DNA from: an uncultured delta proteobacterium
GTDB lineage: Bacteria > Desulfobacterota > Desulfobacteria > Desulfobacterales > JAFDCJ01
Direction: 5' to 3'
Length of the DNA stretch: 64,000 bases
Assembly (NCBI GenBank): GCA_963769935.1
Contig: CAVYNY010000020.1
Coordinates: 1-64,000 of the forward strand
In this document: positions 1 to 31,818 of the stretch, piece by piece
Layout of the letters: every line of letters begins with the position of its first letter
How positions within the stretch are numbered: the first letter of the stretch is position 1
Position numbers and translations under genes: made by a program
The notes under the pieces: model-generated
Seen by the model: the letters and a program-made list of their open reading frames with translations, nothing else
What the model was told of the DNA's origin: nothing
Database searches by the model: none

Positions 1-215
1 TAATGTTGACGTTTTAAGCAACTAAAAACTTATTTAACACTTTTTAATAATTAATTAACTAATTTTAAGCTCACTCTGATGATATAGTATTACAGCGTTT
101 TAATTTATCCTTAATCTGGCTAAAAAAGGGAAGATGCTTTCTAATTGTAGGAAGCTCTTTTCAAAATGATAACCAGTAGTGTTGCTAACAACCTAGGGAA
201 TATAATTTTTAAAAT

Positions 216-2179: not shown

Positions 2180-2402
2180 ATCTCTTTAAAATTAAATCAG
2201 GTAGGTACATAAAGTAAGCAAAGATCTATATTTTTCACCCCGGTATCTCTTCTTTTCAAATTCACAATAACGGCATGTATCTCCAGGTTTTAAAATGATA
2301 AATTTAAGCAGTATTCATTTCTAAATATTTCATTTAAATATCAAAAATAAGAAGACGGAAAAAGGAGGAAATATCCTAGCCAACTGATTGTAAGTTAAAT
2401 AA

Positions 2403-2431
2403 AATTCCCGCTGAAGATTTTAACGGGAATT
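2403..2431. terminator. Hairpin between convergent genes, probable intrinsic terminator
   Basis: AATTCCCG...CGGGAATT inverted repeat with an A-run on the left, which would be a U-tail on the minus strand. Confidence 0.55.
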
Positions 2432-2490
2432 CTGGTAAACTTATTTTTTTGTTGAATCATAATGGGTACTCGACGCAAACTCTATAAATT

Positions 2491-5400
2491 CTATTTTATA
2501 AACTGAGTTTGATAAGTCTGATTATCAATCGTGACATTCAATATATATACACCTTCTATCCAGGAGGAATGATCTATATTCCACATGAGATTCGAGGTGC
2601 CGGCCATTATTGAAAAACTTTCTGATGCCATCTGTTGACCTGAAGAGTTATATACCACGGCAAGCAAAGAAGTGTCTCTTAAAGGTGCCATGAAATACAT
2701 CCCAACACCACTATCAACAGGATTAGGGGAAACATAAAGATCTCCGATTCAGAAGCTAATGCCATACCAGAAGCGCAATTAACCCCTGATGCATTTTGGT
2801 TAGTACTAACTTCCAATCCATTAGAATCGTTCCAGTAAACCACTATCTGAGTTTTACCTTTGCTAACGGTTCCACTTACAATTTGAATTGATTCTCCGCC
2901 TGCGAGGGTGAATGTTCCTGCTGAGTCTCCCGTAGATGAATTCTTTCTTAGTTCCCATCTGCCGCTAACTTCACAGTTGCCCGGATTTGAAATATTCCAG
3001 TATACAGTAGTATTTGTTGAACATTCTTCGGTAACCACTATTGTATCTACACCCTGACAGTTTGTAAGGGGACCATCTGTTCCATCACAATTCTGATCTA
3101 TTCCATCTACAGTATCATCCACTGCTCCGGGATGGACAGATGCCATAGTATCGTCACAATCTGTATTATCCAATATATAACCTGGATCAGGTGAACAGGT
3201 AGTTTGAGAAATCCCTGGGTCTCCATATTCATCACCATCGGCATCTAAATACCAGGTTTGAACTGCACCCATAGAGACATCGGTATCATCACAATCATTA
3301 GCATTGGAAACATAGCCAGATGGAGCTGAACACTCCTCAACAGTATTATTAGGATCGCCTAACCCATCAGAATCTGTATCGGCATACCAGGTTTGTGGCG
3401 TGCAGCTTCCGGTGACAGTTACAATTACATCATCACTGAATTCGGAAGTGTTCCCTTCAGCATCAGTAGCCGTAGCAACAATTATATCTCCTGAAACTAT
3501 TGGACTACCAACCAGGTTCGTTATTTGAATAGAAAGGTAATTATTACCTTTGAGGCTAACAAATTCATCAATTAGATAAGATCCTATATACTCCTTTCCC
3601 TGCCTATTACCGTCACTCTTGTAAACATCACATTTAATAGGATAAACTGAATAAGAAGGATGTGAATCCAAAATGAAGTTTAAGTCCAGATTTGTACCGT
3701 CATAAGCGGCACTATTTATTTCGGGGTAGTTCTGATAATTGTTCGCGCCGCTGTCAGAATCATTTCTATCATTTCTATCGTTTCGGTTATCCGGTCCTAG
3801 ATCAATTCCTATATTATTCCCAAACATTTTGTTTCCAGAAATCTTATTCCCTATTCCGGCTACTGCAACACCTTGCGTATTCATTCCAATAATATTCATC
3901 AAACCTGGATCTAGATCTCCAATTTGATTATTATTACCAGATATATAGATTCCTGATTTACCGTTAGGTAAAGGTGAAATTTCATCACCCTTAACTCCAA
4001 TTATATTTCCAAAGACTTCGTTGAAGGTTGAATTTGCTATATGAATTCCGTTGTCAGAATTACCTGAAATGATATTTCTACTACCCATTGCTGAACCTCC
4101 AATATGATTATTGGTTCCTCCTCCAATGATTACACCTATCCTATTTGGAATGGATCCAATTCCTTCGATATCAGTTCCTATATTATTAGCTTCAACAATA
4201 TTATTAGAACCACCACTAATTTCGATACCTATGGTAAAATTCCCAGAAATTAAGTTTCCTGCACCGGGTGTTCCAATTAAATTGTTTTGTCCATTTACTA
4301 TAATTCCGGTATCGTTCGGGATTGCAACTTTACCAGAGTAATCTGTACCTATAAAATTATTAACCAGAAGGTTATTATCATATTCTATATATATCCCGGT
4401 AGAATTACCAGATATCAGATTACCATCATACGTATTAGTTTCCCGAGCCCAAATACCATATCCATTAGGGACTTTTTCCGTGCCCTGGCTATTGGTTCCT
4501 ATGTAATTACCCTGTATAATATTCTCAAAACTGGTATAACCAATCTCTACTCCATATCTGGAATTCCCTGATATTATATTTCTATTTTCTGGATCAGAAC
4601 CTCCAACAAGATTATTAAATCCTACTAATACAATTCCATAGCTATTAGTAAGCGGAGTTTCTCCATCTGCCCCAACTCCAATATAGTTAGCCTGAATATT
4701 ATTATTATCTGAATTAACCAGAATACCTATTCCGGATTGAACGAGAGTATCCTTAACCTTTCCGAAATCTCCAATGATCAAACCGGTAATACTACTATTT
4801 GAACTACCTTTTAATAATGAAAGCCCTATAGCATTGGTATTTGTTATGGGAATATTTATTCCGGAGATAACAATTTGAGGTTGATCAAATGTATATCCAG
4901 CTTGAGTAGTACCATTTAACTCTATAGGCGCTATTATAGGTGGAAGTATGTCTCCAGGATTTATTTGATGTGGACCTTCACCCGGAATATTAAACTCAAT
5001 AATATCCCTAGCGAGGGTTTTATTTGCATTTTGTAGTGCAGCTCTAAGAGAACAATCCCCATTAATATCTTCACACTGGTTATCATATAGGTTGGCATCT
5101 GAAGTGTCCTCTATAGTATTAACAATGAATGTATTTTCACCTGAAGTTATAATTTCAAAAGAATTACTTTGTAGTGCTGGTAATCCTTCAACGCTGGCTT
5201 CTAGTTTATATAAACCTGGAGTATCAATTATTAAATCTTCAAAACTTACAGAGCCATTTTCAGCATTCCTCACCATATAGCCATTAATTTGTGCTCCAGT
5301 TTGATTAATATCTATAAGGTCTAAACTAACTTTTGAATCAAAATTGCTAAGATTTCCATTAATATCAAGAATATTGATGTTAATAGGAGCCATAGGCCAA

Positions 5401-7525
5401 CCAGTTTCTCCGTTCTGAACGATTTCTGAAAACTCTAAATGATCTAAAGCTAGGTTTGTATATGCGGTAATAGAAGCACTAAATTCAGAGGTGTTTTGCG
5501 CATTACATTTACTTCTTACCTGAAGCTCATACTGTGTAGAAGGAGACAGATCTTTTAAGGAATAGGAATTATAAAAAATATCTTCCACCAGGTTCCAGGT
5601 ATTGCTACCTGTAATTCGATATCTTAATTCATAAGCGGAAGCTTCCTGAATAGCATCCCATAAAATTTCTACGGAATCACTTTGAACATTTCCAATCTGA
5701 ATATTCTGCGGGATCGATGCCACTGTGCATTCTTCACCTGGAAGTACATTAACAGCATAATCTTCAACTTCACCATCACTGCTATTACCACACGGAGAAT
5801 TATTAATTGAATTGTTATCATATAATCGTATACGTAGCCTTTTTATACCCGGGAAGGTATTACTGGGAACTGTAATATTTGTTGAATATTGAGTAAGATT
5901 TTCTGAAGCCTCATAGACGAGTTCTGTAGTCTCGTCAAAAACCTGATCATTATTCCAGTCTACCCAGATATGTATTCCCTTGGTCACACTGGCACCGGAA
6001 ACAAATACTTCTATATCCTGACTTTCCTGCGGAAAGATACAGGTTGCTATATTAGAATAATCTGAATAAGGATTTTTACCAGAGCTATTTTCGATCTGGC
6101 CCAAAACAACTTTTTATCTATGCTTGCGTTTTCCTGGTTTTCTCCTAAAGCATCACAGAAAGCAAGTGAATTAGAATAATTGGCTACTGCTTTTTTGGTC
6201 TCGAGTATGGTTCTAACATTATTCGCTTTTAAGTCATCCCCTGTCTTAGCACCCAGATATTCCTGATTCGGATCTGAAAAATATGGGATTCGTACAGCAG
6301 AATATCCATCTTTATAGTATCTACCGGAATCATAACTCATAATACTACAGTACATCAAATCATCATCTGATAGCCACCTCCAACCGGCTGACCAGGTATT
6401 ATCTTCCCAGTTTATCCATGAGGTCGGCCCCGCCTGAAAATTTTGTGAACTGTTATGCATTGCTCCAAGATTATGACCTAATTCATGTGCAAATGTGGAC
6501 CCCTGGCTGGCAGATCTAACTCTGGTAAGAGAAAACGGGCTCGTAATTTCACCGTACCTATTATCTAATAAATAGGCCATTCCAGCTACATTTCCAGAAT
6601 CAGTAAAAATAGCTACCATATCGGCTCCAACATTTTTCCTTATATCATGTACCTCATCCATCTTTCCATCATTATCTCTATGTAGATCTTCAAGATGAAC
6701 CATAGAATCTGAAGACTCCTCGGTATAATTAACAGCACCCGAATAGACAAGGTTAAAAATCACTCCTAGGTTACTATTCGCTGCAGCGGTATTTGCAGAA
6801 GCAATTGCTGCAGAGATTGTATTATTAATACCTCCCTCGATTGCGGCCCAATTTGCAGCTTCCGGTGTATAAACAACCATAATATCAATCACTGTCTGTT
6901 CTGTCCCATCATAAGGATTACAAAATGATGTTGCAAAAGTGCTGGAATTAGTATTCGCGTGATCTCCCTGGATATTATCCTGAAAGGTTTGTTTTTTATT
7001 TTGAATGACTTCAGGAGATTTACAGGTCTCCTGGTCCTTTATCTTTTCAGGATCCAAAAGAAACAGATATGTCTCTCCTTTATTAGATTTTCTCGAAATA
7101 TACCGTTCATTTTTTTCCGGTATTTCCATAGTCATTAAGTAAGAATTAGGCGATATACTTAAATAGCCAAAGGAATATTTAAAATCATCAAGTTTTAATG
7201 TAAAGGTGGTTACTCCATTAATATCGGTTGTTTTATTAATTACTGAAGAATTAAAACTTTTATTCTGGAAGAGATCTAACTTAATTTTCTGGCCTTTCTG
7301 TAAATTCTTACTCAGAATATTTGAGTTAATTCGAAAGGTTCTAGCTCGTTTAGCCAACTTAAAAAAAGGATCCTGCTGATGTTTCTGCAATTCAATCTCC
7401 GGTCTGTTTTCAATACCATTTTCATTGATATTTATCGACTGAGCATTAGTAAATGAAAAGACGAACAGAAATAAAAAAATGAATAAAAAAAGATTAAACT
7501 TTTGAGAGAAGTAATTTGACTTCAT
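2491..7525 (-). CDS. Large T9SS-secreted protein: reprolysin-like (M12B) zinc metalloprotease, GEVED, FN3, CSLREA/beta-helix, D-rich metal-binding repeats and C-terminal sorting domain; two frameshifts
   Basis: Signal peptide; HELGHNLGAMH zincin motif with SIMSY Met-turn; DGEVEDY; FN3 (YELRYR...LSPSTQYELQVRS); CSLRAAL; repeated N-x-ISGN/IGT beta-helix turns; WYADTDSDGLGDP and WYLDADGDEYGDP repeats; C-terminus GVYILNVT...TQFIK. ORFs 6047-7525, 2679-6104 and 2491-2700 abut or overlap in different frames. Confidence 0.85.
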
Positions 7526-7812
7526 GCCTACAATTTTTTGGTTGGTTGGTATAAAACAATAGATAGAAATAATCCGGAATCATAGGGAAAACCGAAAATC
7601 TGGGTAAAATTTACCGTAGCATATTAAAAGTAGGCGAGCCCAATATAAATTTCTTTGTAATACTATAAAAGGGGAAAAACACCCTAATTACTTGATTTAC
7701 AGTTTTAAAGGATATTTAAAAGATGATTTAGTATAAATTTAACGAATTGTTTCAACCAAGCACCCCATGTAATATTAACTTTAGCTTAATTGACTAATTT
7801 TAAAATAATCCC

Positions 7813-8839
7813 ATGCGGACTTTTCATTTAGAATTAAATGAGGTTGATGATTTTATTCCGGAACTGGCCAAAAATTTAGGAATAGGATATAAAAATGAAT
7901 TGGGTGAGCACAATCTACAAATACCTGAAGAAATTGGTGTGGGTGAGATCACAGGTATCAATTTCCCTAATGGAATAGGTTTTTACACCTATTACCTCAG
8001 TTTTCAGAAGATATCAAGTTAAAAATTCATCAACCAAGTATCAAACCTCTAAGGTTTATCTATTGCATTGAAGGAGTACTGGAAAGTTATTTTTGCGATC
8101 CAGATGAAAAGGTTTGTATCCGGGACCATCAGCACCTAATTGCTGCTCCAGCTTCGGGTGAATCTCATACTTTGATTTTTGGAAAAGACTCAGATATTGC
8201 AATTTGCTACCTTGAAATTAATCGATTAAAATTTCAAAATTATCTATCTTTCAATTTAAATGAAGTCGAACCGGTTTTTATAAGATCTTTAGTGATGTGG
8301 AAGCAAACAACCGGATTTCTAAAGTGGGAAAATTTAGCCTGAGAACTTCTGATATCATCAAAGAAATAAAAACCTGTGATATCACCGGTTTTCCCCGTGT
8401 GAATTTTATCGGAGCCAAGGCCCTGGAAATACTAAGCTATATGTTAAGCCGCTTTAAACATTCTGAGAAGGATTTTTACAATAAAAATTTAAGCGAGAAA
8501 GACCTAAAAGCTATTCAGAAAGCCGTACAGCATATTAATGACCATATAGCTTCAGCAGGTACGGTTTATGAACTTTCCCAGATTGCCGGTGTGAACACCA
8601 ATAAACTACAGGAAGGTTTTCAAACGGTGTACGGGAAAACGGTCAATGAATATATTCGTGACATACGCTTAACCAAAGCTTTAAATATGCTTTCCTCCGG
8701 AAATAAAAATGTAAGCGAGGTTGTATATGAACTCGGTTTATCCAGTCGCAGCTATTTTTCCAAAATTTTTAAAAACAAATACGGAGTAACACCAAGAACC
8801 ATTCTTGCCCAAAATTCGGTATCGGTAAAAGAGGACTAA
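7813..8839 (+). CDS. AraC-family transcriptional regulator (frameshifted N-terminal half)
   Basis: C-terminal double HTH: ELSQIAGVNTNKLQEGFQTVYGKTV...VSEVVYELGLSSRSYFSKIFKNKYGVTP. Confidence 0.85.
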
Positions 8840-9502
8840 TATTTCAGCAGAACCTCTTTATACTTGGTTAAATCGCAAACCCGAAACCTATATTAAGTAG
8901 GATGCCCGATAAAAGAGGTAATAGAGTATTTTAAATTTCCAAAGCATAAGTTACTTTCTCCCGGCTTTCATAAGAGTAAACGAAAAATAAATCAATATTT
9001 TCATGGATATATCCTGTTCTATACAAAAGAATGGGAAGCTTAAAGTTAAATTAAAAAGGCAGTTATTTTTTTAGAACTTCCATGTTTGAAAATTTAATTG
9101 AAATAAAAGTATCCTCAATTTAAAGTAAAACAACACTCCCTAAATATGCATTTTAAAATTTATAACTCACTGAAAAAAAGGGGAATAATCCCCTTTTCTT
9201 ATATTTAAAAAAGATGTACTTTAGTAATTCAAGTAAATTGAAATCCCCACATAAAGAGCTCCTTTTGTTCCTGTAAACAGGAAATTAATACTCCCCCTTG
9301 AAGAAGAATTATTTATAATCAATTCATCAGTCATTCCATTTTTAAATTCATCAAAGATGGAAAACCGGTTAGAAAAGCGTAGTAAAAACTGTCTGGGGAG
9401 ATCCATTCATCAATCAACTTCACTCGTTTTCTTTTAAATTTTTTGAATTAGCCGTTCGACATTCCCGGATTTTCATCTTTTTTCAACACTCTATCCAATC
9501 TG

Positions 9503-9529
9503 ACCCCGACCTCATCAGTCGGGGTTTTT
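9503..9529. terminator. GC hairpin with T-tail
   Basis: ACCCCGAC-CTCATCA-GTCGGGGT followed by TTTT. Confidence 0.45.
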
Positions 9530-9611
9530 AGTACTTTTATTAGCCAGGTCTAATTCGTTAAGTTTTTTATTGTTCGTATCTTCATGGCCATTACACAACA
9601 AAACATATATA

Positions 9612-11771
9612 ATGAACCTACAAATCACGAAATGCCTGGCTGTGGTAACTCTAGCAGTAATCACCAGCTGTGCAAACAGCCCTGAAGCCTTAAATAAACC
9701 TGATACCATGAAAAATCCTTTACTGGAAAAATGGGATGGCCCTTATCAGGGCGTCCCCTCCTTCGACGAAATGCAAGTAGAAGACGTCAAACCAGCGATC
9801 AGAAAAGGAATGCAGCTTAAACTTTCTGAAGTAGATGAGATCACCTCTAACACCAATCCTGCAACTTTTGAAAACACAATTGTTCCTCTTGAGGAATCGG
9901 GAAAGGAGCTTGAAAGAGCTTTTGTTTATTATGGAATTTATAGCAGTAATATATCAAGTCCTGAATTCCGTGAGGTTCAAAAGGAATTAGCCCCGGAAAT
10001 ATCAGAATTCAATTCAAAGATCAGCCAGAACGAAGACTTGTTCAAAAGGATCAAAGCAGTCTACGAAAACTCTCAAAAAACACCTTTGCAAGACGAAGAA
10101 CAACGTGTAATTAACCTCATCTATGAGGAATTTGCTATGGAAGGAGCTAATCTGGATGAAGAAGCTAAGAAAGAATATGCCGAAATAAATAAGGAGCTTT
10201 CAGGTCTATACACTCAATTTTCGAATAATGTACTGGCAGACGAGGAGAATTATGTGACCTATCTTGATAAAGCTCAACTTGGAGGACTTCCGGAATCCTA
10301 TGTGAAATCTGCTGCACAGGCTGCCGCAGATCGTGGACAGGGAGGTAAATATGCCGTAACCAATACCAGATCTTCCATGGATCCTTTCCTTACCTACTCC
10401 TCAGAAAGGGATCTGAGAGAGAAGGTCTGGAAGAATTATTATTCCAGAGGAGACAACAGCGACCAATTTGATAACAATAAGATAGTTGCCAAAATACTGA
10501 AACTGCGTGACCAAAGAGTGGAGTTAATGGGATATGATAATTATGCGCAATGGCGACTACAGAACCGCATGGCAAAAACACCAGAAAATGCTATGGGACT
10601 TTTGATGAAAGTTTGGCCGGCAGCTCTTGCTCGTGTAGAACAGGAAGTGGCCGATATGCAGAAGATAGCTGATGAAGAAGGAGCTAATATTACCATTAAA
10701 CCATGGGATTACAGATATTATGCTGAAAAGGTAAGGAAAGAGAAATACGATCTTGATAGTGAGGAAGTAAAGCAATATCTGGAACTTGGTAATTTAACTC
10801 AGGCCCTATTCTTTACGGCCGGAGAACTGTTTAATTTTGAATTTACTCCTGTAAAAGAAGGAACGGTTCCTGTATTCCATGAGGATGTTAAGGTTTGGGA
10901 AGTAACCGATAAGGATTCGGGAGAAATTATTGGTCTATGGTATCTTGATCCCTACGCGCGAAAAGGGAAACGATCAGGTGCCTGGGCAACCACATATAGA
11001 AGCTATACCAAACTGGAAGGTGAGAAACCTGTCCTTGCCTCCAATAATTCAAATTTTATAGAACCTGCTCCGGGTGAACCCGTTTTGGTCTCCTGGGATG
11101 ATGCCGAAACTTTTTTCCACGAATTTGGACATGCTCTGCATTTCCTCTCGTCGAATGTAAAATATCCTACTTTAAATGGAGGAGTTAGGGATTATACTGA
11201 ATTTCAATCACAACTTCTGGAAAGATGGCTTTCAACAGATAAAGTGATCAATCAGTTTTTAAGGCATTATAAAACAAACGAGGTAATTCCAGATGAACTG
11301 GTAAAAAAGATCAGAAAAGCATCTAAGTTTAATCAGGGATTTGCAACCACAGAATTTCTGGCTTCGGCGATCATGGACATGAAGTATCATACTACCGATC
11401 CTTCAAATATAGATCCCGACACTTTTGAACGTGAAACGCTTAAGGAACTTAATATGCCTGAAGAGATCGTGATGAGACACCGTACACCTCATTTTGGGCA
11501 TGTGTTTTCTGGTGAAGGATACGCCACAGGTTATTATGGATATTTATGGGCCGATGTGCTTACCTCGGACGCTGCAGAAGCTTTTGCCGATGCTCCCGGT
11601 GGATTTTATGATAAAGAAGTGGCTCGGAAACTGGTGAAATATCTGTTCGCACCTCGTAATTCAATGGATCCCGCAGAGGCTTATAAAAAATTCCGCGGTA
11701 GAGAAGCTAAAATTGATGCTTTAATGAGAGACCGTGGATTCCCTATTCCTGAAGATAACGACCAAAAATAA
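9612..11771 (+). CDS. dcp: M3-family metallopeptidase (peptidyl-dipeptidase Dcp-like), lipoprotein
   Basis: HEFGHALH zinc motif, GKRSGAW, HFGHVFSG-GYATGYYGYLWA; lipobox-like AVITSC. Confidence 0.9.
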   Translation: MNLQITKCLAVVTLAVITSCANSPEALNKPDTMKNPLLEKWDGPYQGVPSFDEMQVEDVKPAIRKGMQLKLSEVDEITSNTNPATFENTIVPLEESGKELERAFVYYGIYSSNISSPEFREVQKELAPEISEFNSKISQNEDLFKRIKAVYENSQKTPLQDEEQRVINLIYEEFAMEGANLDEEAKKEYAEINKELSGLYTQFSNNVLADEENYVTYLDKAQLGGLPESYVKSAAQAAADRGQGGKYAVTNTRSSMDPFLTYSSERDLREKVWKNYYSRGDNSDQFDNNKIVAKILKLRDQRVELMGYDNYAQWRLQNRMAKTPENAMGLLMKVWPAALARVEQEVADMQKIADEEGANITIKPWDYRYYAEKVRKEKYDLDSEEVKQYLELGNLTQALFFTAGELFNFEFTPVKEGTVPVFHEDVKVWEVTDKDSGEIIGLWYLDPYARKGKRSGAWATTYRSYTKLEGEKPVLASNNSNFIEPAPGEPVLVSWDDAETFFHEFGHALHFLSSNVKYPTLNGGVRDYTEFQSQLLERWLSTDKVINQFLRHYKTNEVIPDELVKKIRKASKFNQGFATTEFLASAIMDMKYHTTDPSNIDPDTFERETLKELNMPEEIVMRHRTPHFGHVFSGEGYATGYYGYLWADVLTSDAAEAFADAPGGFYDKEVARKLVKYLFAPRNSMDPAEAYKKFRGREAKIDALMRDRGFPIPEDNDQK

Positions 11772-11793
11772 TTTACGGTTTTTATGAAAAATT

Positions 11794-11824
11794 AAAATGC
11801 CCTGAAGTGTCAGGGCATTTTTTT
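11794..11824 (+). terminator. Intrinsic terminator after the M3 peptidase
   Basis: AAAATGCCCTGA-AGTG-TCAGGGCATTTT followed by a T-run. Confidence 0.75.
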
Positions 11825-11836
11825 AATTTCGAATCC

Positions 11837-12421
11837 ATGCACAGACATTTTAAAATATATAAGCCTTATGGTTATTTGAGTCAGTTTATAACAAATCAAA
11901 AGCCACAGAAAAAGAACAGGTTATTGGGTGAATTATTTGATTTTCCTGAGGGCACTATGTCTATTGGCAGGCTGGATAAAGATTCTGAAGGGCTTCTACT
12001 ATTAACTACCAATGGCAAATTAAGCACGAAAATCACAGCCGGCAATTCTGAAAAAGAATATTATGCACAACTGGATGGAGAAATTTCAGCAGAAGAAATT
12101 GAAAGATTAAGAAATGGCGTGGAAATAAGTGTCAACGGCGAAAAATATCATACACTTCCCTGTAAAGCTTCGAAATTAAGTCATATTCCTGTCTTCCCCG
12201 AAAGAGCCAAAAAAATTAGAGATGAACGCCATGGCCCTACCTGCTGGATCTCTATAATTCTTACCGAAGGTAAATTTAGACAGGTTAAGAAAATGACCGC
12301 CGCAGTAGGCTTTCCTACTTTACGACTGGTTAGGGTAAGAATAGGAGAAGAATACCTCGATAATATGGATTCCGGAGAGGTTATAGAAAAAGAAAAATTT
12401 GACCTAACTCCTTCCGACTAA
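11837..12421 (+). CDS. RsuA/RluE-family pseudouridine synthase
   Basis: YKPYGYLSQF, GRLDKDSEGLLLLT (catalytic Asp), LTEGKFRQVKKM, PTLRLVRVRIG. Confidence 0.92.
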   Translation: MHRHFKIYKPYGYLSQFITNQKPQKKNRLLGELFDFPEGTMSIGRLDKDSEGLLLLTTNGKLSTKITAGNSEKEYYAQLDGEISAEEIERLRNGVEISVNGEKYHTLPCKASKLSHIPVFPERAKKIRDERHGPTCWISIILTEGKFRQVKKMTAAVGFPTLRLVRVRIGEEYLDNMDSGEVIEKEKFDLTPSD

Positions 12422-23365: not shown

Positions 23366-26248
23366 CTATCCGCCTGCCGGCGTCGGATTGTCGGCCGGTC
23401 CATTTGACAGCTGCTCAATCAGACGCAGCTTGATATTGTTGGCGGCTTTTTGAGCAGATTCAGCCAGGGGCGATTTGCCCTCGGCCAGCTTCTCCAGAAA
23501 TGATTCAGATTTGGCCGTACCTATATTTCCAAGGGTGTTGACTGCCGACGACAGCACCATGGACTGATCCGATACGGCGGCTTTTTTGAAGCGTTCAAAC
23601 AGACCTTTTTTCTGATTTGATAAGTTGCGGGCAAAGTCTAAAATACTATCTTCCGCTTCGGCATGATTGGGGATATGCGGGATCGTTCCGAGCGCTCTGA
23701 TCAACTGGGCGATTTTGCGATTATGTTTGTCGGCTTCAGCTTTATCATCGGGAGCTTCAGCGGTTATTTGAGCAAGCAGCTTCCTGATTGAATCTTCCGA
23801 AATCAGCGCAAGTTCGCCGAGGCCGTTCATCGCGCGCCAGCGCACTTTATCGTCGACATCCTCCAGGGCGGCGATGACCTGCTTTTCGGTGCCTTCGGCT
23901 TTTTTCCGGATAAGCGCGTTTAAAGCCTCATAACGGACCCGGGGATCTCCATAGTTCAGAAACTTGTGGGCGCGCGCAATATCCTGCTTGTTATCTCCGA
24001 CATATCCCAGCAGCATCAAGGCATTGCGGATTAAATACCATTTTTGTCCGGGAGTGTCCAGCACCCTGAAAATCCAGTCCCGCGCCAGGCCGCCTTTTTT
24101 TATCAAGGCTTCCATGGCTGCTTTTCTCGCAAAACGGTCCTGGCTGTCGGAGAGCGCCTTGCTCAAAATCTCTACGCCCATCATGTCCAGGCGGTTGCAG
24201 ATGTCATTTATCAGCGTGCGTTGCGATGCGTCCACCTTGTCATAGGCTGCCACGATTGCTTCGGTGTGGTCCTTGAAAACAAAAACGAGCGGATTCGCAA
24301 GCCGTCCGGAGGCCGGCTTGAAAAGGTCGGTGGTTGCAACGATTTTATGCATGGCCCGGGTCAGATAAACCACATTCCGCCAGGATGCGGTTTCGGTCAG
24401 AGCCGGCAAAATACGGCGAAAAAGCTTGAGCATGACGGCGGCGTCTTCTTTGGATTTGATGTGCAGAAAGCGGTTGACGTAGCTTTTAATGTGGGCCTGC
24501 ACATCCTTAGTCATTTTATCCGTATTTACAAAATATTGCACGTCAGCCGGAAGCTCCTCAAAAGTCAGGACCCGATTCAAATAAAGTTTTTCCAGAAACT
24601 TTTGGGCCCCTTTCACATCTTCCAAAACCAGCCGTTGCGACACCCATTTTAAGATGCGTTTCACCCCGCTGAAGCGCCGCTGCAGGACGGCGTTATCCTG
24701 AAGTTCTGTCTTCACGGTCCGCAGATGATTGAGTTCTTCAAAAATAAACCGGGAGGTAGGCAGCAGGCTCTCAAGGGGCAAAGCTTCGATGATGACCTTT
24801 TCGATGTCTTCGGCTTGGAGGCTTTTGACGTGTTGGGCGATGATATAGCAGTTGACAATAAAGTCTTTGAGAAATTCAGGATGCTTCAACGGCCGTAAAA
24901 TATCCTGGATGATCTGAAGCTTCATGGTCCGCATGGCCTCACCGGATTTGCTCTTGAACATCGGCAAAACCGTCAGATCCTTGGCCAGGCGCTGGATCGC
25001 CATCTCGACGCGCCAGGGAAGATTTAACTCCAGGGCAATTAAATCGTCTTTGAACACGGTCGATATCTGGGTGATGCCGTGCTCAACCAGGGCCTTGGAC
25101 AAGAGCTCGCCGATTTTTTGCCCTGTGCCGGTGTCAGCCTTGGGGTCGCTCATGATGGTCATAAATCTTTCAAAATGATCGAGGGGGATATCCTTTTTGA
25201 CGGCAAAGCTGACAAGGCTTTTGCGGTTGAAATATTCCTGCAGTTTAGGCACGAAAAGTTCCGCCATTCCCGAGCCGACCAGAGTTCTCACATTAACGGG
25301 TTCATCCAGAATGCCGTTGATCAGGATTTCGGAGCCTTCCCGCATCACGCGGTTCGTTATCATTATTTCGCCGGAATCGGCCAGACATCGCTGGAACGCC
25401 TCATACAGACCCTTTTTCGCCTGCCGGGACCCGGGATGATCCGGGGCATAGTAACCGCTGCGCAGCATAGCCCTGGTAAGATCCATGAGAAATTCAGCGG
25501 CAGGCTTTGCCCGGCGGCTCTCTTCCTCGGTGAGGTGATTTTTGGCGGTGGCCGGTGCGGCGGCCAGGTGAGCGGCGGTCTCCTTTTCTCTGGTTGCCTC
25601 CTCTTGTGCGATGGCACCGCGGATCCACATTATGCTCAGCGCACGGTTTTTTTCGCTACCGGATTCCGGGGTGTCACCCGGGGCAATCTCGACCGGGGCA
25701 GGCCCGGCCGCTTGCCCTTCCGCCGGCAGCCGGGCGGCCTGAGTTTGAATCGCAGAAGAAGCCGGCGTGCCATCGGCCGGCGGCATTGAATCGCCGGTCG
25801 GGTGTACCTGGGCCGTGGCGCCAACCGAGCCGGGTGACGGAATCTCAGGCGATTTCAGATTGCTCGCCGGTTTTTCCCGGCCGGCGTTGGATTTTAGGCG
25901 GGCGTAAGAATCCGGCGCTTTCAAGCCCAATAAGTCCCTGTAATCCGCATTGGTGCTCAGGGCATCATTGAGATCTTTGAGGGCGGCGGCCGGGGTTGCG
26001 AGGCCGACGAGCATTCCGCTCGACTTTTGCAGGGGAGCCGCAGTTTGGGCATCGAGGGCCTTTATGACAACGCCCTCCACGGTAACTTCCTGTTCAACTA
26101 CGGGGATAAAAATTTGCAAAGCTACGCTTGTATTTTCAGGCAGAGGGGCTCTGGCGGGAAGAAAAATCCTGCCCTTGCAAAGCTGAGCGTAGTCGCTCAA
26201 AAATCGTTCCAGAGAAACGTAGTTGAGCTTTATTTCTTTTGTCGCCAA
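23366..26248 (-). CDS. HEAT-repeat protein with possible N-terminal PilZ-like domain and Pro/Ala linker
   Basis: 960-aa ORF; C-terminal HEAT motifs (WYLIRNA, DPRVRYEAL, DDKVRWRA); N-terminal GRIFLP...V-VEGVV...GM-V. Confidence 0.7.
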   Translation of the reverse strand: MATKEIKLNYVSLERFLSDYAQLCKGRIFLPARAPLPENTSVALQIFIPVVEQEVTVEGVVIKALDAQTAAPLQKSSGMLVGLATPAAALKDLNDALSTNADYRDLLGLKAPDSYARLKSNAGREKPASNLKSPEIPSPGSVGATAQVHPTGDSMPPADGTPASSAIQTQAARLPAEGQAAGPAPVEIAPGDTPESGSEKNRALSIMWIRGAIAQEEATREKETAAHLAAAPATAKNHLTEEESRRAKPAAEFLMDLTRAMLRSGYYAPDHPGSRQAKKGLYEAFQRCLADSGEIMITNRVMREGSEILINGILDEPVNVRTLVGSGMAELFVPKLQEYFNRKSLVSFAVKKDIPLDHFERFMTIMSDPKADTGTGQKIGELLSKALVEHGITQISTVFKDDLIALELNLPWRVEMAIQRLAKDLTVLPMFKSKSGEAMRTMKLQIIQDILRPLKHPEFLKDFIVNCYIIAQHVKSLQAEDIEKVIIEALPLESLLPTSRFIFEELNHLRTVKTELQDNAVLQRRFSGVKRILKWVSQRLVLEDVKGAQKFLEKLYLNRVLTFEELPADVQYFVNTDKMTKDVQAHIKSYVNRFLHIKSKEDAAVMLKLFRRILPALTETASWRNVVYLTRAMHKIVATTDLFKPASGRLANPLVFVFKDHTEAIVAAYDKVDASQRTLINDICNRLDMMGVEILSKALSDSQDRFARKAAMEALIKKGGLARDWIFRVLDTPGQKWYLIRNALMLLGYVGDNKQDIARAHKFLNYGDPRVRYEALNALIRKKAEGTEKQVIAALEDVDDKVRWRAMNGLGELALISEDSIRKLLAQITAEAPDDKAEADKHNRKIAQLIRALGTIPHIPNHAEAEDSILDFARNLSNQKKGLFERFKKAAVSDQSMVLSSAVNTLGNIGTAKSESFLEKLAEGKSPLAESAQKAANNIKLRLIEQLSNGPADNPTPAGG

Positions 26249-26649
26249 AATGACCTCTTCAACACCATCGTTATGTAAGTCATCGCGAATGATGGGATGA
26301 GCATTTCGTCAGGAGTTGCGTCCCGCCCCCCCATCAAAAAGTGCCAAAGCATTTTGTCGGACTGATAAGTCGACGCGCACAAAGAGAACTCAGCTTCTAA
26401 AAGGATGGCCAACAAAAAACCGTATATTTTCTGATAATTATAGTCGACATCGGCCGGAATGTCAATTTAACGGTACGCAGGATACCCTGCCAAGCGAAGG
26501 GATGGCTAAATTGGTGGTTGGTAATATTTCTTTCGAGCCACCCATGTTCAGATTAAATAGGTTGACTTAAAAGGAAATTTTGATAGGAATGTATCAGCTA
26601 AATGCCCTTACCAAATATATGAGGTTTGGCATGCTTAAAAAATCGACGA

Positions 26650-26781: not shown

Positions 26782-27450
26782 ATGGCAAAGAAAAAAATAT
26801 TTTTAGCATCTTCATCCGAATTGAAAGATGACAGAGTCGCGTTCGAACTTTACATTAATCGAAAAAACAAGGAGTGGCATGATAAAGGTATTTTTCTTGA
26901 ACTGATATCTTGGGAAGATTTTTTAGATGCCATGTCGCAGGAACGGTTGCAGGATGAATACAACAAAGCCATCCGTGAATGCGATATATTCGTGATGCTT
27001 TTTTTTACCAAAGTCGGAAAATATACGAATGAAGAGTTTGAAACTGCATTCGGACAGTTCAAAAAAACCAATAAACCGTTTATTTATACGTATTTTAAGG
27101 ATGCTGCCATAACTACCGGCAGTGCGAATCGGAAAGACTTGATGAGTTTGTATGCGTTTCAAGACAAATTAGACCGCTTAGGCCATTTTTATACTGTTTA
27201 TAAAAACATTGACGATCTGAAATACCAATTTGAACGCCAATTGGATAAATTGGCCGATGGCGGCTTTATTCAATTTGAACCGGAAAAAGATCAGGATGGG
27301 CAGAAACCGACCGCCACTACCAAAATCGGCCGTACCGTCCGCGATTCCGAGGTGGAATCTCTCTCAGAGGGCGGCAATTCTCGAACTGAGGTGGGCCAAG
27401 ACGTAATAGGGTCAAAAATAACGACAAAATCTACGATGAAGGCGAAATGA
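26782..27450 (+). CDS. TIR-like (DUF4062-type) effector domain with two C-terminal pseudo-repeats
   Basis: KIFLASSSELKDDR...W-ED...LQDEYNKAIRECDIFVMLFFTKVGKYTNEEF; GGGAGGTG RBS; tail TKIGRTVRDSEVES / TEVGQDVIGSKITT. Confidence 0.75.
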   Translation: MAKKKIFLASSSELKDDRVAFELYINRKNKEWHDKGIFLELISWEDFLDAMSQERLQDEYNKAIRECDIFVMLFFTKVGKYTNEEFETAFGQFKKTNKPFIYTYFKDAAITTGSANRKDLMSLYAFQDKLDRLGHFYTVYKNIDDLKYQFERQLDKLADGGFIQFEPEKDQDGQKPTATTKIGRTVRDSEVESLSEGGNSRTEVGQDVIGSKITTKSTMKAK

Positions 27451-28304
27451 GTCTCATGTCGACCAATGAACCCATTCCGGTAAGTGAAATCGTCAATTTT
27501 GATGAAATGCTAAATAAATTCAAGAAGATGATATCCGGCCCCAATTCCAAAAAAATTATGATCATCGTTGCGCGGGACGGGCGTGGCAAGACGAGTTTAT
27601 TGCGTAAAATGCAACATCACTGTCAGTCCCTGGAAGTGCCCAGCTGCCTGATAGATCTCTCCCAAACTTATAATTTCCCCCATCTGGAATTGGCCAGAGA
27701 AATTTGCGAACGACTACAGTTGCCAATGACGGCTTTAACGGAAGCCTTCAGCCCAATCAGTGCTCCTGCTGGAAAATCAGGAGTTAAAATGGAAGCATCC
27801 ACTAAAATAGGCGGCAATGTCATTGATTCAACGATTGAAACCAAAAACATTCTCCAAATCGTCCTGAACAACGAGGCCCTTCATAGCGAAGATATTAAAA
27901 GGCGGCTCAGCCGCAGCCTCGCCTCTGATATCACATCGGGTAAAAAAATGATGGTATGTCTTTTTGACACTTTTGATACCGGAACCAGAGTAGTTACGGA
28001 TTGGTTAATAGAGGCCCTTTTGCGTCCTATTCGAGAGCGGGGGATAGATAACCTGATTGTAATTATTGCCGGAAGTGCGTGGCCCCAAAAAATAAGTGAT
28101 GTGGATTGGGAAGCCCATGCAGAATTCATAGAAGGAATGCCATTGATGTCAAAGAATCATCTATTGGAGTTTGCAGAGAGAATCGGATGTGAGTTGTCAC
28201 AAGAAGAACTTGAAACATGCTGGTTGGGCTGCGGAAAAGGCAGGCCGCTGTTAATGAATATGTTCATCAAAACTTTATGCAGTGAGAAAAGATCAAGTGG
28301 TTGA
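27447..28304 (+). CDS. STAND/AAA-like P-loop ATPase
   Basis: Walker A ARDGRGKT, Walker B MVCLFDTFD, sensor LIVIIAGS, C-terminal GxP (GRPL); ATGA overlap with the upstream stop. Confidence 0.75.
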   Translation: MSLMSTNEPIPVSEIVNFDEMLNKFKKMISGPNSKKIMIIVARDGRGKTSLLRKMQHHCQSLEVPSCLIDLSQTYNFPHLELAREICERLQLPMTALTEAFSPISAPAGKSGVKMEASTKIGGNVIDSTIETKNILQIVLNNEALHSEDIKRRLSRSLASDITSGKKMMVCLFDTFDTGTRVVTDWLIEALLRPIRERGIDNLIVIIAGSAWPQKISDVDWEAHAEFIEGMPLMSKNHLLEFAERIGCELSQEELETCWLGCGKGRPLLMNMFIKTLCSEKRSSG

Positions 28305-29727
28305 AAAATTAAAAGATTCAACACCGAATATGGATGACGAAGAACTTTTGGCTGCAATTTTAAATCAGATTATGGATATGGCGGGACAAGATGTTGCAGC
28401 AGCGATTAATTTTTGTGCCGTACCGCATTGGTTCAATGAAAAAATACTTTCATGGTTGCGGGATGAACCTGAAATTTCAAATCGGACACGTTCAATTCTT
28501 GCTCAATTAAATGAATTAGGTTTGGCAATGCGGTACAAACCCAAGAATTGGATGTTTCACAAAATGACACGCGATTTTTTATTGAAAAAATGGTGCCGGA
28601 TAAATCCGGTTGGCTTTAAACAGTTGAATCTAAGGATGGCCGAACTTTTTCAAAATAGTGCCGCAAATAGGTTTGAATTTATCTATCATCTATTGGCCGG
28701 GGGCGACCCAAAGGGCTTTGAACTGTTGGTAAAAGACGTCGCGCAGTCCAATCGGCTTTATTATTTCAGCACCGCGGAAAGACTGCTTGGTTTGGCAAAA
28801 GAACCATGTATCAGGCTATTAAGATCGCAACAGAATCAATTACAGTATTATGATGCAGAGCTGGCGGCGATATCAGGCTATTGGGATGAAGCCCTGCCAA
28901 CACTCAGGCTGCTGAAGCAGAGAAAATTGCCGGAAGATCTTCTGGCAAAAGTTTTTCTTCGCTTGGGGACTGTTTATAACCGAAGAGGACAATGGACCCA
29001 TGCAATTAATAGTTACCGGAAGTGTCTGGATCTTGGGGATAATGTTGAACCGAGCGACAGGGCTTGGGCTTACAGTGGACTGGGACTTATCTATGGCTGG
29101 CAGGGAGAATGGGGGCAGGCTGAAAAATGCCATAATTTCGCGATGCGTGTCGCCGAACAATCAAACGACCAGCTTTGGTTGAGCCGAGCCGTCAATAATC
29201 TCGGTGAAATATTTCAACAAACCGGGCAGCTGGAAAAGGCAAAAGACCATTATCAAGAATCCATCCGCATGAAAAAGGTCTTGGGCGATCGTTTTGGGCT
29301 CTTATGGACCTATAATAATTTAGGCTCCTTATACCTTAAACTTGGTGAACGGTCCAGGGCCTCAAAAGTGCTGAATAGAAGCCTAAACTTGGCACGCAAA
29401 CTAAAGAGCCCTGAAGAAGAAGCGCGAGCCTTGGAGTTTCTGGGAGCGCTTCAAACGCTAAAGGGGAATTTTAAGCGGGCGAATGACTACTACTTGGAAG
29501 CTTTAAAAATATGCGAGAAAGTCAATGAACCGCACATAAAGGCTGATATCCAGTCAAAAATGGGCATCTCATATGAACAGGAAGGAAGGATCAAAGACGC
29601 AATAGCTGCTCTTGCGGAAGCGCTGGCAATTTATAAGAAACTGAAGAGCCTCCAAGCCGTTGAGACTGTAAAAAAAATAAATGAATTAAAGAAGTCGGCG
29701 AGCAAAGCGTCTAAGTCAAATGGTTGA
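28282..29727 (+). CDS. Winged-helix plus tetratricopeptide-repeat protein (STAND sensor part)
   Basis: CAVPHWFNEKIL...WMFHKMTRDFL followed by ~40-aa TPRs (AVNNLGEIFQQTGQLEKAKDHYQES, TYNNLGSLYLKLGE). Confidence 0.85.
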   Translation: MRKDQVVEKLKDSTPNMDDEELLAAILNQIMDMAGQDVAAAINFCAVPHWFNEKILSWLRDEPEISNRTRSILAQLNELGLAMRYKPKNWMFHKMTRDFLLKKWCRINPVGFKQLNLRMAELFQNSAANRFEFIYHLLAGGDPKGFELLVKDVAQSNRLYYFSTAERLLGLAKEPCIRLLRSQQNQLQYYDAELAAISGYWDEALPTLRLLKQRKLPEDLLAKVFLRLGTVYNRRGQWTHAINSYRKCLDLGDNVEPSDRAWAYSGLGLIYGWQGEWGQAEKCHNFAMRVAEQSNDQLWLSRAVNNLGEIFQQTGQLEKAKDHYQESIRMKKVLGDRFGLLWTYNNLGSLYLKLGERSRASKVLNRSLNLARKLKSPEEEARALEFLGALQTLKGNFKRANDYYLEALKICEKVNEPHIKADIQSKMGISYEQEGRIKDAIAALAEALAIYKKLKSLQAVETVKKINELKKSASKASKSNG

Positions 29728-29733
29728 AACCGC

Positions 29734-30960
29734 TTATCTTAATATTATCAGACCCCGATTATGAAGTTGCGCCACTAAATCGATGCCATCCTGCCCGAAG
29801 AGTTTATATATTTCATGCATTTTCGTATCCCCGGTGCACATATCCAATATAGCCTTTGCTTCCCCGCTGACAGGGACGACCTGGCTGTTTTGAATCAGAA
29901 TATAGCCGAAGGGTTCGGGTCTCATTTGAAAGCATTTAACAGGGCGGGCCTCTTTCGGAAGATTAATCTTTTTTCTCTTATCGTGGAGATCGATGGGGAG
30001 CGGATCACGGATGAGAGGGTCTTGCGGCAGTTCGTTTATCATCGCCGCCGCGCGGCAACCTCCATGGCAGCTTGTGTAGACTGAACATCGATCGCAGAAA
30101 GACGGTATAAAACGTCTCCACTTCTGCATTCCCTCGCTGTGCCAGATGACTTGCAGCGAACTGTCCAGCAAGTTTCCGCAATTTGCAGCAGACATGACGC
30201 AGGGACGGACGTTGCCCCAGGGGTCGATCGTCAGGGTTATCGTCCCGGCCAGGCATCCATTGAATAACGTTGAATTATGGAAGCACTTTGGTATGCAGAC
30301 GCTGCTGAAAATGGGAATATCTGAGTCCCTCATCTGATTTGTGATGGCTTGAATAGCGGATATCAGCTGAGGATTGGAGGGGTTTAGCTGATTTTCTTTC
30401 AAGCAGACAAATCTGCTGAAAGTAATGCCTTGCGAACCTAATTTTCGATTGATTCGCACCATCTCCTCTATGCGATCAAAGTTTAACGATGTGATGATAC
30501 AATTGATAAATACGCGAAGATGATGATCCGCCGCGAAACGAATATTTTTGCAAGTCTCTATGAATGAACCCGGTATTCCTGTAAAGCCATCATGGCTTTG
30601 AGCATCCGGGCCATGTAAAGATACCAGGATTTCGGAAAATCCTGAGAAAGCACCGAGCGTACCGACAATTTGCTTCTTGCTAGGCCATCTTGCGTTGGTG
30701 AATAGTGAAAAAGAAAATTCGAGTTTGTTTATCAGGGTAAGTAATTCGGTGAAATTCGGACTGAGTGTCGGCTCCCCTCCTGTTAGATTCAGATGAACAA
30801 CAGCGGGCTTGAGCTTGGATAATATGGTCTGCCAGACATCAATATTGATAATGGTTTGATTATCGTCAACTGCGAATACAGTGCCGCATCCGCTGCAATT
30901 ATTGTTGCAACTAGAGGTGACTTCCAGGTACGCGAAAACAGGTGAGGATGGAATTATCAA
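29734..30960 (-). CDS. Radical SAM/SPASM peptide maturase with C-terminal PqqD/RRE-like domain
   Basis: CNNNCSGC, TGGEP, VSLHG, SPASM cysteines GCLAG...IDPWGNVRPC...CDRCSVYTSCHGGCRA; ~70-aa tail MRPEPFGYILI...AKAILDMCTG...LVAQLHNRGLI; TTG start. Confidence 0.9.
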   Translation of the reverse strand: MIIPSSPVFAYLEVTSSCNNNCSGCGTVFAVDDNQTIINIDVWQTILSKLKPAVVHLNLTGGEPTLSPNFTELLTLINKLEFSFSLFTNARWPSKKQIVGTLGAFSGFSEILVSLHGPDAQSHDGFTGIPGSFIETCKNIRFAADHHLRVFINCIITSLNFDRIEEMVRINRKLGSQGITFSRFVCLKENQLNPSNPQLISAIQAITNQMRDSDIPIFSSVCIPKCFHNSTLFNGCLAGTITLTIDPWGNVRPCVMSAANCGNLLDSSLQVIWHSEGMQKWRRFIPSFCDRCSVYTSCHGGCRAAAMINELPQDPLIRDPLPIDLHDKRKKINLPKEARPVKCFQMRPEPFGYILIQNSQVVPVSGEAKAILDMCTGDTKMHEIYKLFGQDGIDLVAQLHNRGLIILR

Positions 30961-31005
30961 CTTTTTACTAGCATCTAACTAAAGGGCTGGCTTGGATGAC
31001 ACTAA

Positions 31006-31161
31006 GGGCTCACTCAAAAATAACTTCACATTTTATACGCCGATGCATCTCATGCGGCTGCGTTGCGAAAGCTCGGAATATCCAGATATTCCTGCGTTTT
31101 CGCGCCTTGCCGCAAGAGCGCCTCAACGCTTAAAACTGTGAATTAATTTTTTCGTGAACCC
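31006..31161 (-). mobile_element. 156-bp MITE-like element, copy 1
   Basis: Imperfect terminal inverted repeats GGGCTCACTCAAAAATAACTTCACA / TGTGAATTAATTTTTTCGTGAACCC, flanked by TAA on both sides; internal palindrome GGAATATC-CA-GATATTCC; closely similar inverted copy at 36461-36616. Confidence 0.85.
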
Positions 31162-31397
31162 TAAGGAATTGGCGCCGGGCACTGAGCATTTGGGTTTGGG
31201 CACTGGACACTCGGTGTCGGGCACTGAGCCAATCGCCGGGCTTCGGGGTTGGGGCATTGAGAAAAATACACTTGACCGCTGAGATTTTTCTGTTGCCCTT
31301 CTCCAATAGTACCAGGAGTCAGCTCACAATGAAAATTAACTCCTTGCGATGGGTAAAAATCAAGCAAATAGTTTCGTCTTTTATCACGCGCTTTCAT
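31161..31397 (-). CDS. Putative RiPP precursor peptide with four QCPxP repeats
   Basis: GAGGGGG RBS; core QCPNP-EARRLA-QCPTP-SV-QCPNP-NA-QCPAP-IP*; synonymous Pro/Gln codons differ between repeats; directly upstream of and co-oriented with the rSAM gene. Confidence 0.8.
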   Translation of the reverse strand: MKARDKRRNYLLDFYPSQGVNFHCELTPGTIGEGQQKNLSGQVYFSQCPNPEARRLAQCPTPSVQCPNPNAQCPAPIP

Positions 31398-31595
31398 TTT
31401 TCCCCCTCTAGTTTTAAGTCACCTGGAAAAGACAGTTAAATATTTCTGCTAGCACAGTGTCAGAAAATGCCAAATAGGTCAATAATTTTTATGGACCCAT
31501 CCAACACCTCATTTTAAAATAAATAGGATTTTTAAAAACCTAGATTCCGAGAATATTTCGAATTGCTTGTATTGCCTTTTTCCCGACAACCTACT

Positions 31596-31818
31596 AAAAG
31601 GGATTGAAGCGCGGTTTGTTATCGACGGCAACATCTGGACAGGCGCAGGTGTTTCGGCGGGAATCGATCTGGCCCTGGCATTTATCAAGCACGAAGCCGG
31701 TGAGAAAGCTACCGGCAAGGTTCAGTCTTTGGTCGAATATTATCCGGCCGGCAAACGATACGGTAAATTTCATCAGGATTCCAAGGCACCGGGCTATTTA
31801 CAAAGGAGTACTTTATGA
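31596..31818 (+). pseudogene. 5'-truncated DJ-1/PfpI-family gene
   Basis: Only the C-terminal part, RFVIDGNIWTGAGVSAGIDLAL...VEYYP, is present; no N-terminal half upstream. Confidence 0.7.

Follow-up and report, generated by a model that had tools for sequence, protein, structure and literature searches.

The closest described counterparts of the locus studied here are the FxSxx-COOH systems (FxsA/B/C/T) of Actinomycetota, which bring together a small variable precursor peptide with a conserved C-terminal motif, a radical S-adenosylmethionine (rSAM) enzyme with a SPASM domain, a TIR protein and an ATPase with tetratricopeptide repeats (TPR), and for which a role in biological conflict or cell death has been predicted (PMC7159879; ParA preprint, 10.64898/2026.10.19.760177; both considered in part). 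In the portion of the preprint considered here, FxsC and FxsT are termed functionally uncharacterised. To this picture we add a block of five genes from an uncultured member of the Desulfobacterales, located in a 64,000-nucleotide stretch of DNA (hereafter, the window; contig CAVYNY010000020.1, positions 1 to 64,000). A sequence-only reading of the window had described this block as a TIR-like effector, an ATPase and a winged helix-turn-helix (wHTH)-TPR protein converging on an rSAM enzyme and its precursor peptide, and had pointed out that FxSxx systems combine similar proteins with an unrelated precursor; both statements are borne out, and all five genes are real. Our analysis further indicates that the block represents one conserved system, pairing peptide processing with a conflict theme built on nucleoside triphosphatase (NTPase)-TPR proteins, and that the window copy is best read as a split, inverted and minimal form of a recurring cassette whose genes otherwise run in one direction.

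Several features set the window's family apart from the FxSxx-COOH systems. The core of its precursors is based on cysteines (CxC or QCPxP) and not on FxSxx, and its maturation uses a leader together with a recognition element (RRE) for peptides that are made on ribosomes and modified after translation (RiPPs), while a zincin HExxH motif is absent from the window rSAM and from the five genes as a whole. Its peptides duplicate together with the receptor, its hosts belong to Desulfobacterota, Chloroflexota and Bacteroidota, and no VMAP, vWA or ParA was seen in it. At the level of protein models, the block reaches 32.6 bits against the FxSxx_TPR cut-off of 300 and gives no match to FxsC, although analogous proteins are present; likewise, among the best 25 of 59 NCBIfam matches of the window rSAM, none reaches its cut-off and none is an FxsB model. 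The cassette is therefore analogous to the FxSxx systems but not a member of them, failing on the precursor motif, the HExxH motif and the model cut-offs.

Other described systems share parts of this organization. Bacterial NLR amyloid-signalling (BASS) pairs carry a short beta-rich motif both at the C-terminus of an effector and in an adjacent NLR-like gene, and these pairs alternate with fusions (10.1101/2020.01.06.895854; Bab/Agp, 10.1101/2024.11.07.622273; both considered in part); TIR2 is among the reported BASS effectors. The corresponding motif of the window, which we liken to BASS from its sequence, is an internal insert of the NTPase and not an NLR N-terminus, and it comes with an rSAM enzyme and a peptide. 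The RRE-dependent rSAM/SPASM maturases of sactipeptides and ranthipeptides (SkfB, CteB, SuiB, PqqE) have in common with the window enzyme the fold, the SPASM cysteines, the RRE and an adjacent precursor made of a leader and a cysteine core, whereas the window rSAM is only 17-21% identical to them, carries its RRE at the C-terminus, shows no recurring protease or exporter and is coupled to NTPase-TPR proteins. Finally, the NTPase-wHTH-TPR layout is shared with the Avs/STAND receptors. No PADLOC model covers the core NTPases, and no description of the cassette family was found in open-access full text, a scope that leaves subscription papers and bioRxiv supplements outside. Two supplementary files of Kaur 2020 (PMC7159879) contain no match to SPASM or radical (figure source data with alignments, outside this scope, could bear on novelty), the main text of Kaur 2021 does not contain the word radical, and the portion considered of a 2026 STAND survey held nothing relevant to the cassette.

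Loci of the wider family were collected from 6 of 64 parts of a genome scan and from 120 loci of a metagenome pattern scan, of which 80 have flanks and 40 have none. The family so obtained comprises 85 loci scoring above 200 bits, which form 63 clusters at 85% identity. The upstream gene was counted in those 31 clusters whose upstream sequence spans 3.5 kb or more, leaving out the 32 of 63 with less. In 29 of these 31 clusters, a Walker-A protein of at least 700 amino acids, mostly an NTPase-TPR protein, lies directly upstream on the same strand, compared with 0 of 51 non-family rSAM control loci from the same scans, which were not dereplicated and two of which have such a gene on another side. 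The two misses are locus L014, which encodes a 1702 amino acid protein with a weak TPR match together with a caspase, and L088. Homologues of the two halves thus co-occur in other genomes, contrary to the outcome that the sequence-only reading had named as refuting its proposal, and there is strong support for treating them as one system.

The usual cassette is co-directional and begins with one or more DS-41-like ATPases, followed by either an effector-ATPase or another ATPase with a length near 450 amino acids, an NTPase-wHTH-TPR protein of 800-1200 amino acids, an optional GNAT acetyltransferase (12 loci), the precursor and the rSAM gene. DS-41 is a single ATPase gene with validated anti-phage activity (DefensePredictor, PMC13092281, considered in part). 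The upstream ATPases of the relatives match its DS41_1 model with 63-235 bits (E down to 2e-69), below the cut-off of 370, while the window ATPase scores 15 bits. The effector slot is variable, holding TIR (L035, L142, L211), SIR2 (L099, L128, L136), a Mrr-like nuclease (L143), a caspase or CHAT (L014, L134), EAD1, EAD7 or bDLD1 domains. Named hosts include Chloroflexota and Bacteroidota in addition to the window's own order. Judging by this gene context, namely the exchangeable effectors and the DS-41-like ATPases, the cassette as a whole probably serves in defence or cell death. The convergent layout and QCPxP core of the window copy are features of its sub-clade and not of the system.

Three further observations concern the family. 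The GNAT gene (L107:10773-11267 and 11 other loci) lies mostly between the NTPase-TPR gene and the precursor or rSAM gene. A Trans_reg_C DNA-binding domain is present at the C-terminus of DS-41-like ATPases at the head of cassettes (L096:17008-18492, L107:17487-19016 and L159:1434-2993), which suggests autoregulation. Of the two cassette copies in genome G416, one has its NTPase-TPR gene disrupted by a transposase (L211:9303-11492).

Among the closest relatives, the association is also maintained. The five nearest rSAM clusters, 67-87% identical to the window rSAM, all co-locate with the ATPase or with a TIR-ATPase fusion. This co-location was read directly in genome G475 and is otherwise indicated indirectly by contigs of equal size (120157, 9329, 9352, 40903, 75568 and 5305 bp); on the 40903-bp contig, the accessions of the TIR-ATPase, rSAM and precursor end in 248, 250 and 251, respectively. 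G475, which belongs to another family than the window host, encodes a 466 amino acid TIR-ATPase followed by the TPR protein, converging on the rSAM gene; these genes lie beside HEAT-repeat and thioredoxin-reductase genes that are also neighbours of the block in the window. The close homologues are labelled Desulfobacterales by their sources. The rSAM was not found in any of the 22 congeners searched (77-97% complete), and in four of seven congener regions the closer HEAT homologue (57-60%) is present without the block at that place. Taking into account that profile matches occur in 6 (rSAM) and 2 (ATPase) of 401 genomes, the host assembly G000 included, the five-gene block is patchily distributed. 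The term island, given to it in the sequence-only reading, is only partly apt, and a recent, genome-specific island was rejected, since in G475 the block occupies this site too.

The ATPase and wHTH-TPR genes of the window lie side by side where the usual cassette has one large gene. Against the family NTPase-TPR profile, the ATPase matches positions 11-187 (E 2.5e-10) and the TPR protein positions 277-703 (E 5e-37), and the two matches are collinear. The Walker A and B motifs of the ATPase are invariant in eight homologues, and the protein falls among AAA_16 clusters of the Atlas and groups with family NTPases in a fast tree. The TPR protein matches Pfam TPR_12 (E 6e-37) and is 74% identical to its G475 orthologue. 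A STAND/NLR-like architecture, in the order P-loop NTPase, wHTH, TPR sensor, is therefore present in the window, spread over two genes. These matches are suggestive of orthology, with the ATPase as the putative N-terminal half and the wHTH-TPR protein as the putative C-terminal half of a split NTPase-wHTH-TPR receptor, and the latter protein is the predicted binder of peptide and trigger. A frameshift artefact behind the three-gene split was rejected, because five homologues of 285 amino acids share the same end and independent contigs span the junctions: a contig of another run (X3 record 18) covers the TIR/ATPase and ATPase/TPR junctions, and contigs of runs X1, X2 and X5 cover the convergent junction, all without indels. 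One of the runs X1 and X2 may represent the source sample. In addition, G000 encodes on contigs C16, C11, C9, C18, C34 and C10 seven NTPase + TPR proteins of 1066-1184 amino acids that are unrelated to the cassette, the six inspected having cysteine-rich N-termini.

These data also bear on the possibility that the window copy is a chance juxtaposition or a decaying relic, in which an unrelated TIR-ATPase-TPR module came to lie beside an orphan RiPP pair. Such an origin would fit the convergent orientation, which departs from the co-directional operon of the family, as well as the weak receptor similarity, the lack of an rSAM match in the searched congeners and the truncated gene and miniature mobile element nearby. 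However, the pairing is kept in all five close rSAM clusters through fusion and fission of the TIR gene, the seven non-clade matches of the ATPase profile among 8809 open reading frames (a database enriched for such loci) are all family-linked NTPases, and all reading frames of the block are intact, so that this explanation is largely refuted and very improbable.

The rSAM protein contains both Pfam Radical_SAM and SPASM domains, and ten of its cysteines are invariant in 100 of 100 aligned rows (C18, C22, C25, C226, C236, C254, C289, C292, C298 and C302), comprising the CxxxCxxC motif and seven more. Its AlphaFold model (mean predicted local distance difference test, pLDDT, of 92) is closest in fold to the peptide maturases SuiB, SkfB, CteB and PqqE. 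The RRE that had been proposed from sequence gains support from the fold, residues 336-408 of the model aligning with the PbtF RRE (8t19_A; Z 9.5, root-mean-square deviation 2.1, 73 aligned residues); Pfam does not see it, as PqqD is matched in 1 of 100 rSAM family members. In the tree, the window rSAM nests within the wider family, near L146. Viperin identity, raised by PADLOC pVip matches, was rejected, because these matches span the rSAM core only and both the SPASM domain and the RRE argue against it. The enzyme likely cross-links the cysteine peptide, with thioether-type chemistry predicted.

Two of four matches to the window precursor, P0135 and P0137, are genuine homologues with the same leader and QCPxP repeats, in agreement with the QCPxP peptide described before; P0134 and P0136 were rejected as matches in repeat composition. 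The window peptide ends in CPAPIP, and NCBIfam has no match for it or for any of eight family precursors. In the family, precursors carry a leader of the form LL(D/N/S)F(F/Y), that of L146 being most like the window's, and end in CxC(x), SCN or QCxG; cysteine is the only conserved residue of the core. QCPxP is a sub-type of the usual CxC-ending precursor. It should be noted that, in 53 rSAM rows, 33 have an RRE without a fused CxC core, and 13 have no RRE and carry a (G)DCAC-type core at their own N-terminus. The loss of the leader thus accompanies that of the RRE, and this marks out the cysteine motif as the substrate. In L035 of Bacteroidota (L035:7861-9978), a precursor-like peptide with leader and GDCAC is instead fused to the N-terminus of a TIR-ATPase.

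As an alternative, the peptide, or the CxC tag, could serve to sense metals, Fe-S or redox state, or to dock the rSAM onto the NTPase-TPR complex. The cassette would then be a stress-signalling or protein-modifying machine, with the ATPases or some foreign target as possible substrates of its rSAM and GNAT, and would not be a receptor gated by a peptide. The CDCDCAC and QCPxP repeats could plausibly bind a metal or a cluster, fusions of the tag with the enzyme exist, and the 12 GNAT genes between receptor and rSAM, the Trans_reg_C domains of some upstream ATPases and the matches to TPR_MalT and AfsR-like proteins are compatible with such a machine. The joint gain and loss of RRE and leader, on the other hand, resembles ordinary RiPP maturases, the nearest folds are those of peptide maturases, and the variable slot is filled by cell-death effectors, and we consider this explanation unlikely.

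The arrangement of peptides and receptors suggests a relationship between the two. Four loci have two NTPase-TPR genes and one rSAM gene, and in three of them (L004, L212 and L142) a peptide follows each receptor. In G045 and G416, which belong to different families, the receptor paralogues are 29-30% identical within the locus and the orthologues 51-53% identical across genomes; which ending a peptide has depends on the paralogue, NSCN going with one and QC[AG]G with the other. Because of these duplications with one peptide per receptor, we favour the peptide as a candidate ligand or guarded part of the TPR sensor.

The same evidence bears on a conflict system in which the modified peptide is a released toxin or an alarm signal that amplifies the response and binds no receptor. 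Such a role has been proposed for the analogous Fxs peptides in the parts considered of Kaur 2020 (PMC7159879) and the ParA preprint; the defence context is equally compatible with it, and generic proteases or cell lysis could free the peptide. Nevertheless, the 22 largest neighbour clusters, some of them annotated, include no peptidase or exporter that recurs family-wide, and the rSAM has no HExxH. Moreover, peptides follow the receptor paralogues and are not clustered at the enzyme, and the cores tethered to 13 RRE-less rSAMs or to the TIR-ATPase of L035 fit a tag kept inside the cell better than a peptide set free. A released peptide therefore seems improbable to us.

The effector of the window was examined together with its ATPase partner. 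The TIR-like protein resembles the N-terminus of PADLOC PDC-S60 (E 6e-12), and E84/E85 are invariant in 34 aligned rows; NCBIfam gives no match. Its 1699 homologues at E<=1e-40 share a constant domain that is followed by one of several unrelated, exchangeable beta-rich tails rich in G, V, N and I (P0147-P0265), which presumably resemble amyloid or RHIM-type adaptors. In the window, the beta-rich tail (residues ~170-222) contains two copies of a motif resembling an internal, beta-rich insert of 23 residues in the ATPase (about residues 110-132). The score between tail and insert (49) was reached in 1 of 2000 shuffles, and the four best-scoring of 120 TIR tails against the insert are all from the window's clade. 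The insert is present in all five stand-alone ATPases of 285 amino acids and absent from two of the four relatives in which a whole TIR-ATPase fusion is found. By analogy, tail and insert may behave as an amyloid pair.

From gene context, domain content and motif patterns, which form the demonstrated layer of this study, we infer a sequence of modification, binding, oligomerisation, NADase activity and defence. Our preferred reading, to which we assign a probability of roughly 0.45, is that, inside the cell, the modified peptide binds the split receptor at its TPR part and thereby controls a suicide switch of the NLR-like kind. The RRE would bind the LLxF(F/Y) leader, and the enzyme would form thioether-type cross-links at cysteines of a product that would stay intracellular and tag the receptor complex. 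This tag would act as a lock or guard, the most likely role, slightly favoured over that of a key or licensing factor, which is nearly as likely; its loss or displacement on infection would let the NTPase oligomerise. The oligomer would recruit the TIR protein via the common beta-rich motif, or directly where the two are fused, and the toxic output, TIR here and SIR2, nuclease or caspase in other copies, would kill or arrest the infected cell. More doubtful is a general scheme of an NLR-like receptor class, in which each receptor would have its own rSAM cross-linked peptide as a cognate lock or key self-tag and the window's clade would signal to a separate TIR protein via an amyloid-like loop of the NTPase.

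A number of observations weigh against this gating of a split receptor by its peptide. The two halves resemble the family receptor weakly (123 bits for the TPR protein and 35 bits for the ATPase on its profile, where six unrelated NTPase-TPR proteins from G000 reach 47-106 bits); the tree placement of the ATPase comes from FastTree and a long branch. After strand 4, the eight close ATPases have an invariant AGS where the family consensus is AGR, with serine in place of an arginine that we take to be sensor-1. The window copy also has no second ATPase, DS-41-like ATPases or GNAT, and nothing corresponding to profile positions 704-945. As for the effector, Pfam TIR_2 is matched below its cut-off (E 1e-4; 23 bits against 28), as is DUF4062, also weakly, the model shows a beta-alpha pattern at low confidence (pLDDT 52), and a PDB sequence search with the TIR alignment gave no match. 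Two of the four TIR-ATPase fusions retain the insert, for which reason a strict rule of insert loss upon fusion was rejected. The count of RRE against fused core has seven exceptions (four rows with both, one of them probably a frame artefact, and three with neither, one being 5'-truncated and one a short match), and the RRE-less rSAMs form about two groups in the tree, pointing to few, non-independent events. In L128, a peptide follows only the distal one of two receptors, G045 and G416 have one duplication in common, and a pattern of one peptide per receptor can arise passively by tandem duplication of a segment. Lastly, three related loci have a gene downstream that looks like a transporter, and two loci contain caspase or CHAT peptidases.

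Table 1. Genes of the block and neighbouring features, with positions in the window.
Feature	Coordinates	Strand	Details
TIR-like (DUF4062-like) predicted effector	26782..27450	+	222 aa
AAA_16/STAND-like P-loop NTPase, stand-alone	27447..28304	+	285 aa
wHTH-TPR protein	28282..29727	+	about 476-481 aa
Radical SAM / SPASM / C-terminal RRE maturase	29734..30960	-	408 aa
Miniature inverted-repeat mobile element	31002..31160	no strand	159 bp, TAA duplication, directly past precursor stop codon
Precursor peptide	31161..31397	-	78 aa; leader YLLDFYP + four QCP repeats
DJ-1/PfpI-like gene remnant, 5'-truncated	31567..31818	+	at right edge; outside system

The features of the locus are listed in Table 1. 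Alignment to the G475 orthologue makes GTG 28297 the probable start of the TPR gene. The convergent stops are 6 bp apart, as had been stated, compared with 29 bp in G475. The block was also correctly described as more AT-rich than its surroundings: its GC content is 0.442, against 0.514 and 0.497 in the 5-kb flanks, and 3.2% of equal-sized windows of the genome are equally low. Each of the five genes is single-copy in the 8.0 Mb of G000. Contigs from two metatranscriptome runs of a single study cover parts of each of the five genes. They extend over the flanks as well and may stem from carried-over DNA, so that expression was not used as evidence.

Between the precursor and rSAM genes sits a 159-bp mobile repeat that the sequence-only reading had not mentioned. 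It has 77 of 86 BLAST matches in G000 at or above 120 bp as well as a hairpin z of -5.1 and a TAA/TTA target duplication. In four runs from soil or sediment it is very deep, and one contig of run X1 lacks it at this site; the element is a passenger, outside the system. The 5'-truncated DJ-1 gene noted at the right edge is likewise real but incidental; it has a weak match to the C-terminal region of TIGR01383 (positions 139-178 of 180 in the profile) and is 72% identical over 67 amino acids to a 209 amino acid gene of G017. A scan for promoters and terminators gave results at chance level (14 vs 9.8 +/- 3.1). Elsewhere in the window, a sigma-70 promoter with a perfect 12/12 consensus (26437-26465, minus strand) is aimed at the gene for a 960 amino acid HEAT-repeat protein (23366-26248), of which there is a paralogue on C22, and positions 1-12000, at the start of the contig, form a second, far more AT-rich region (GC 0.31-0.41).

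For the Fxs systems, the sources considered above have noted that enzymes modifying peptides are coupled to ATPase-TPR and TIR conflict proteins, and the presence of such a coupling in an independent family with a different chemistry suggests more than one origin for it. Among the versions with an effector that we have seen, the window copy is the smallest, and its five genes could be cloned whole in 4.6 kb. If the peptide gates the receptor, the cassette would link RiPP biosynthesis to guard immunity of the NLR type and provide a new function for an unexplored rSAM family, in which the RiPP would be an intracellular immune cofactor and not a secreted natural product.

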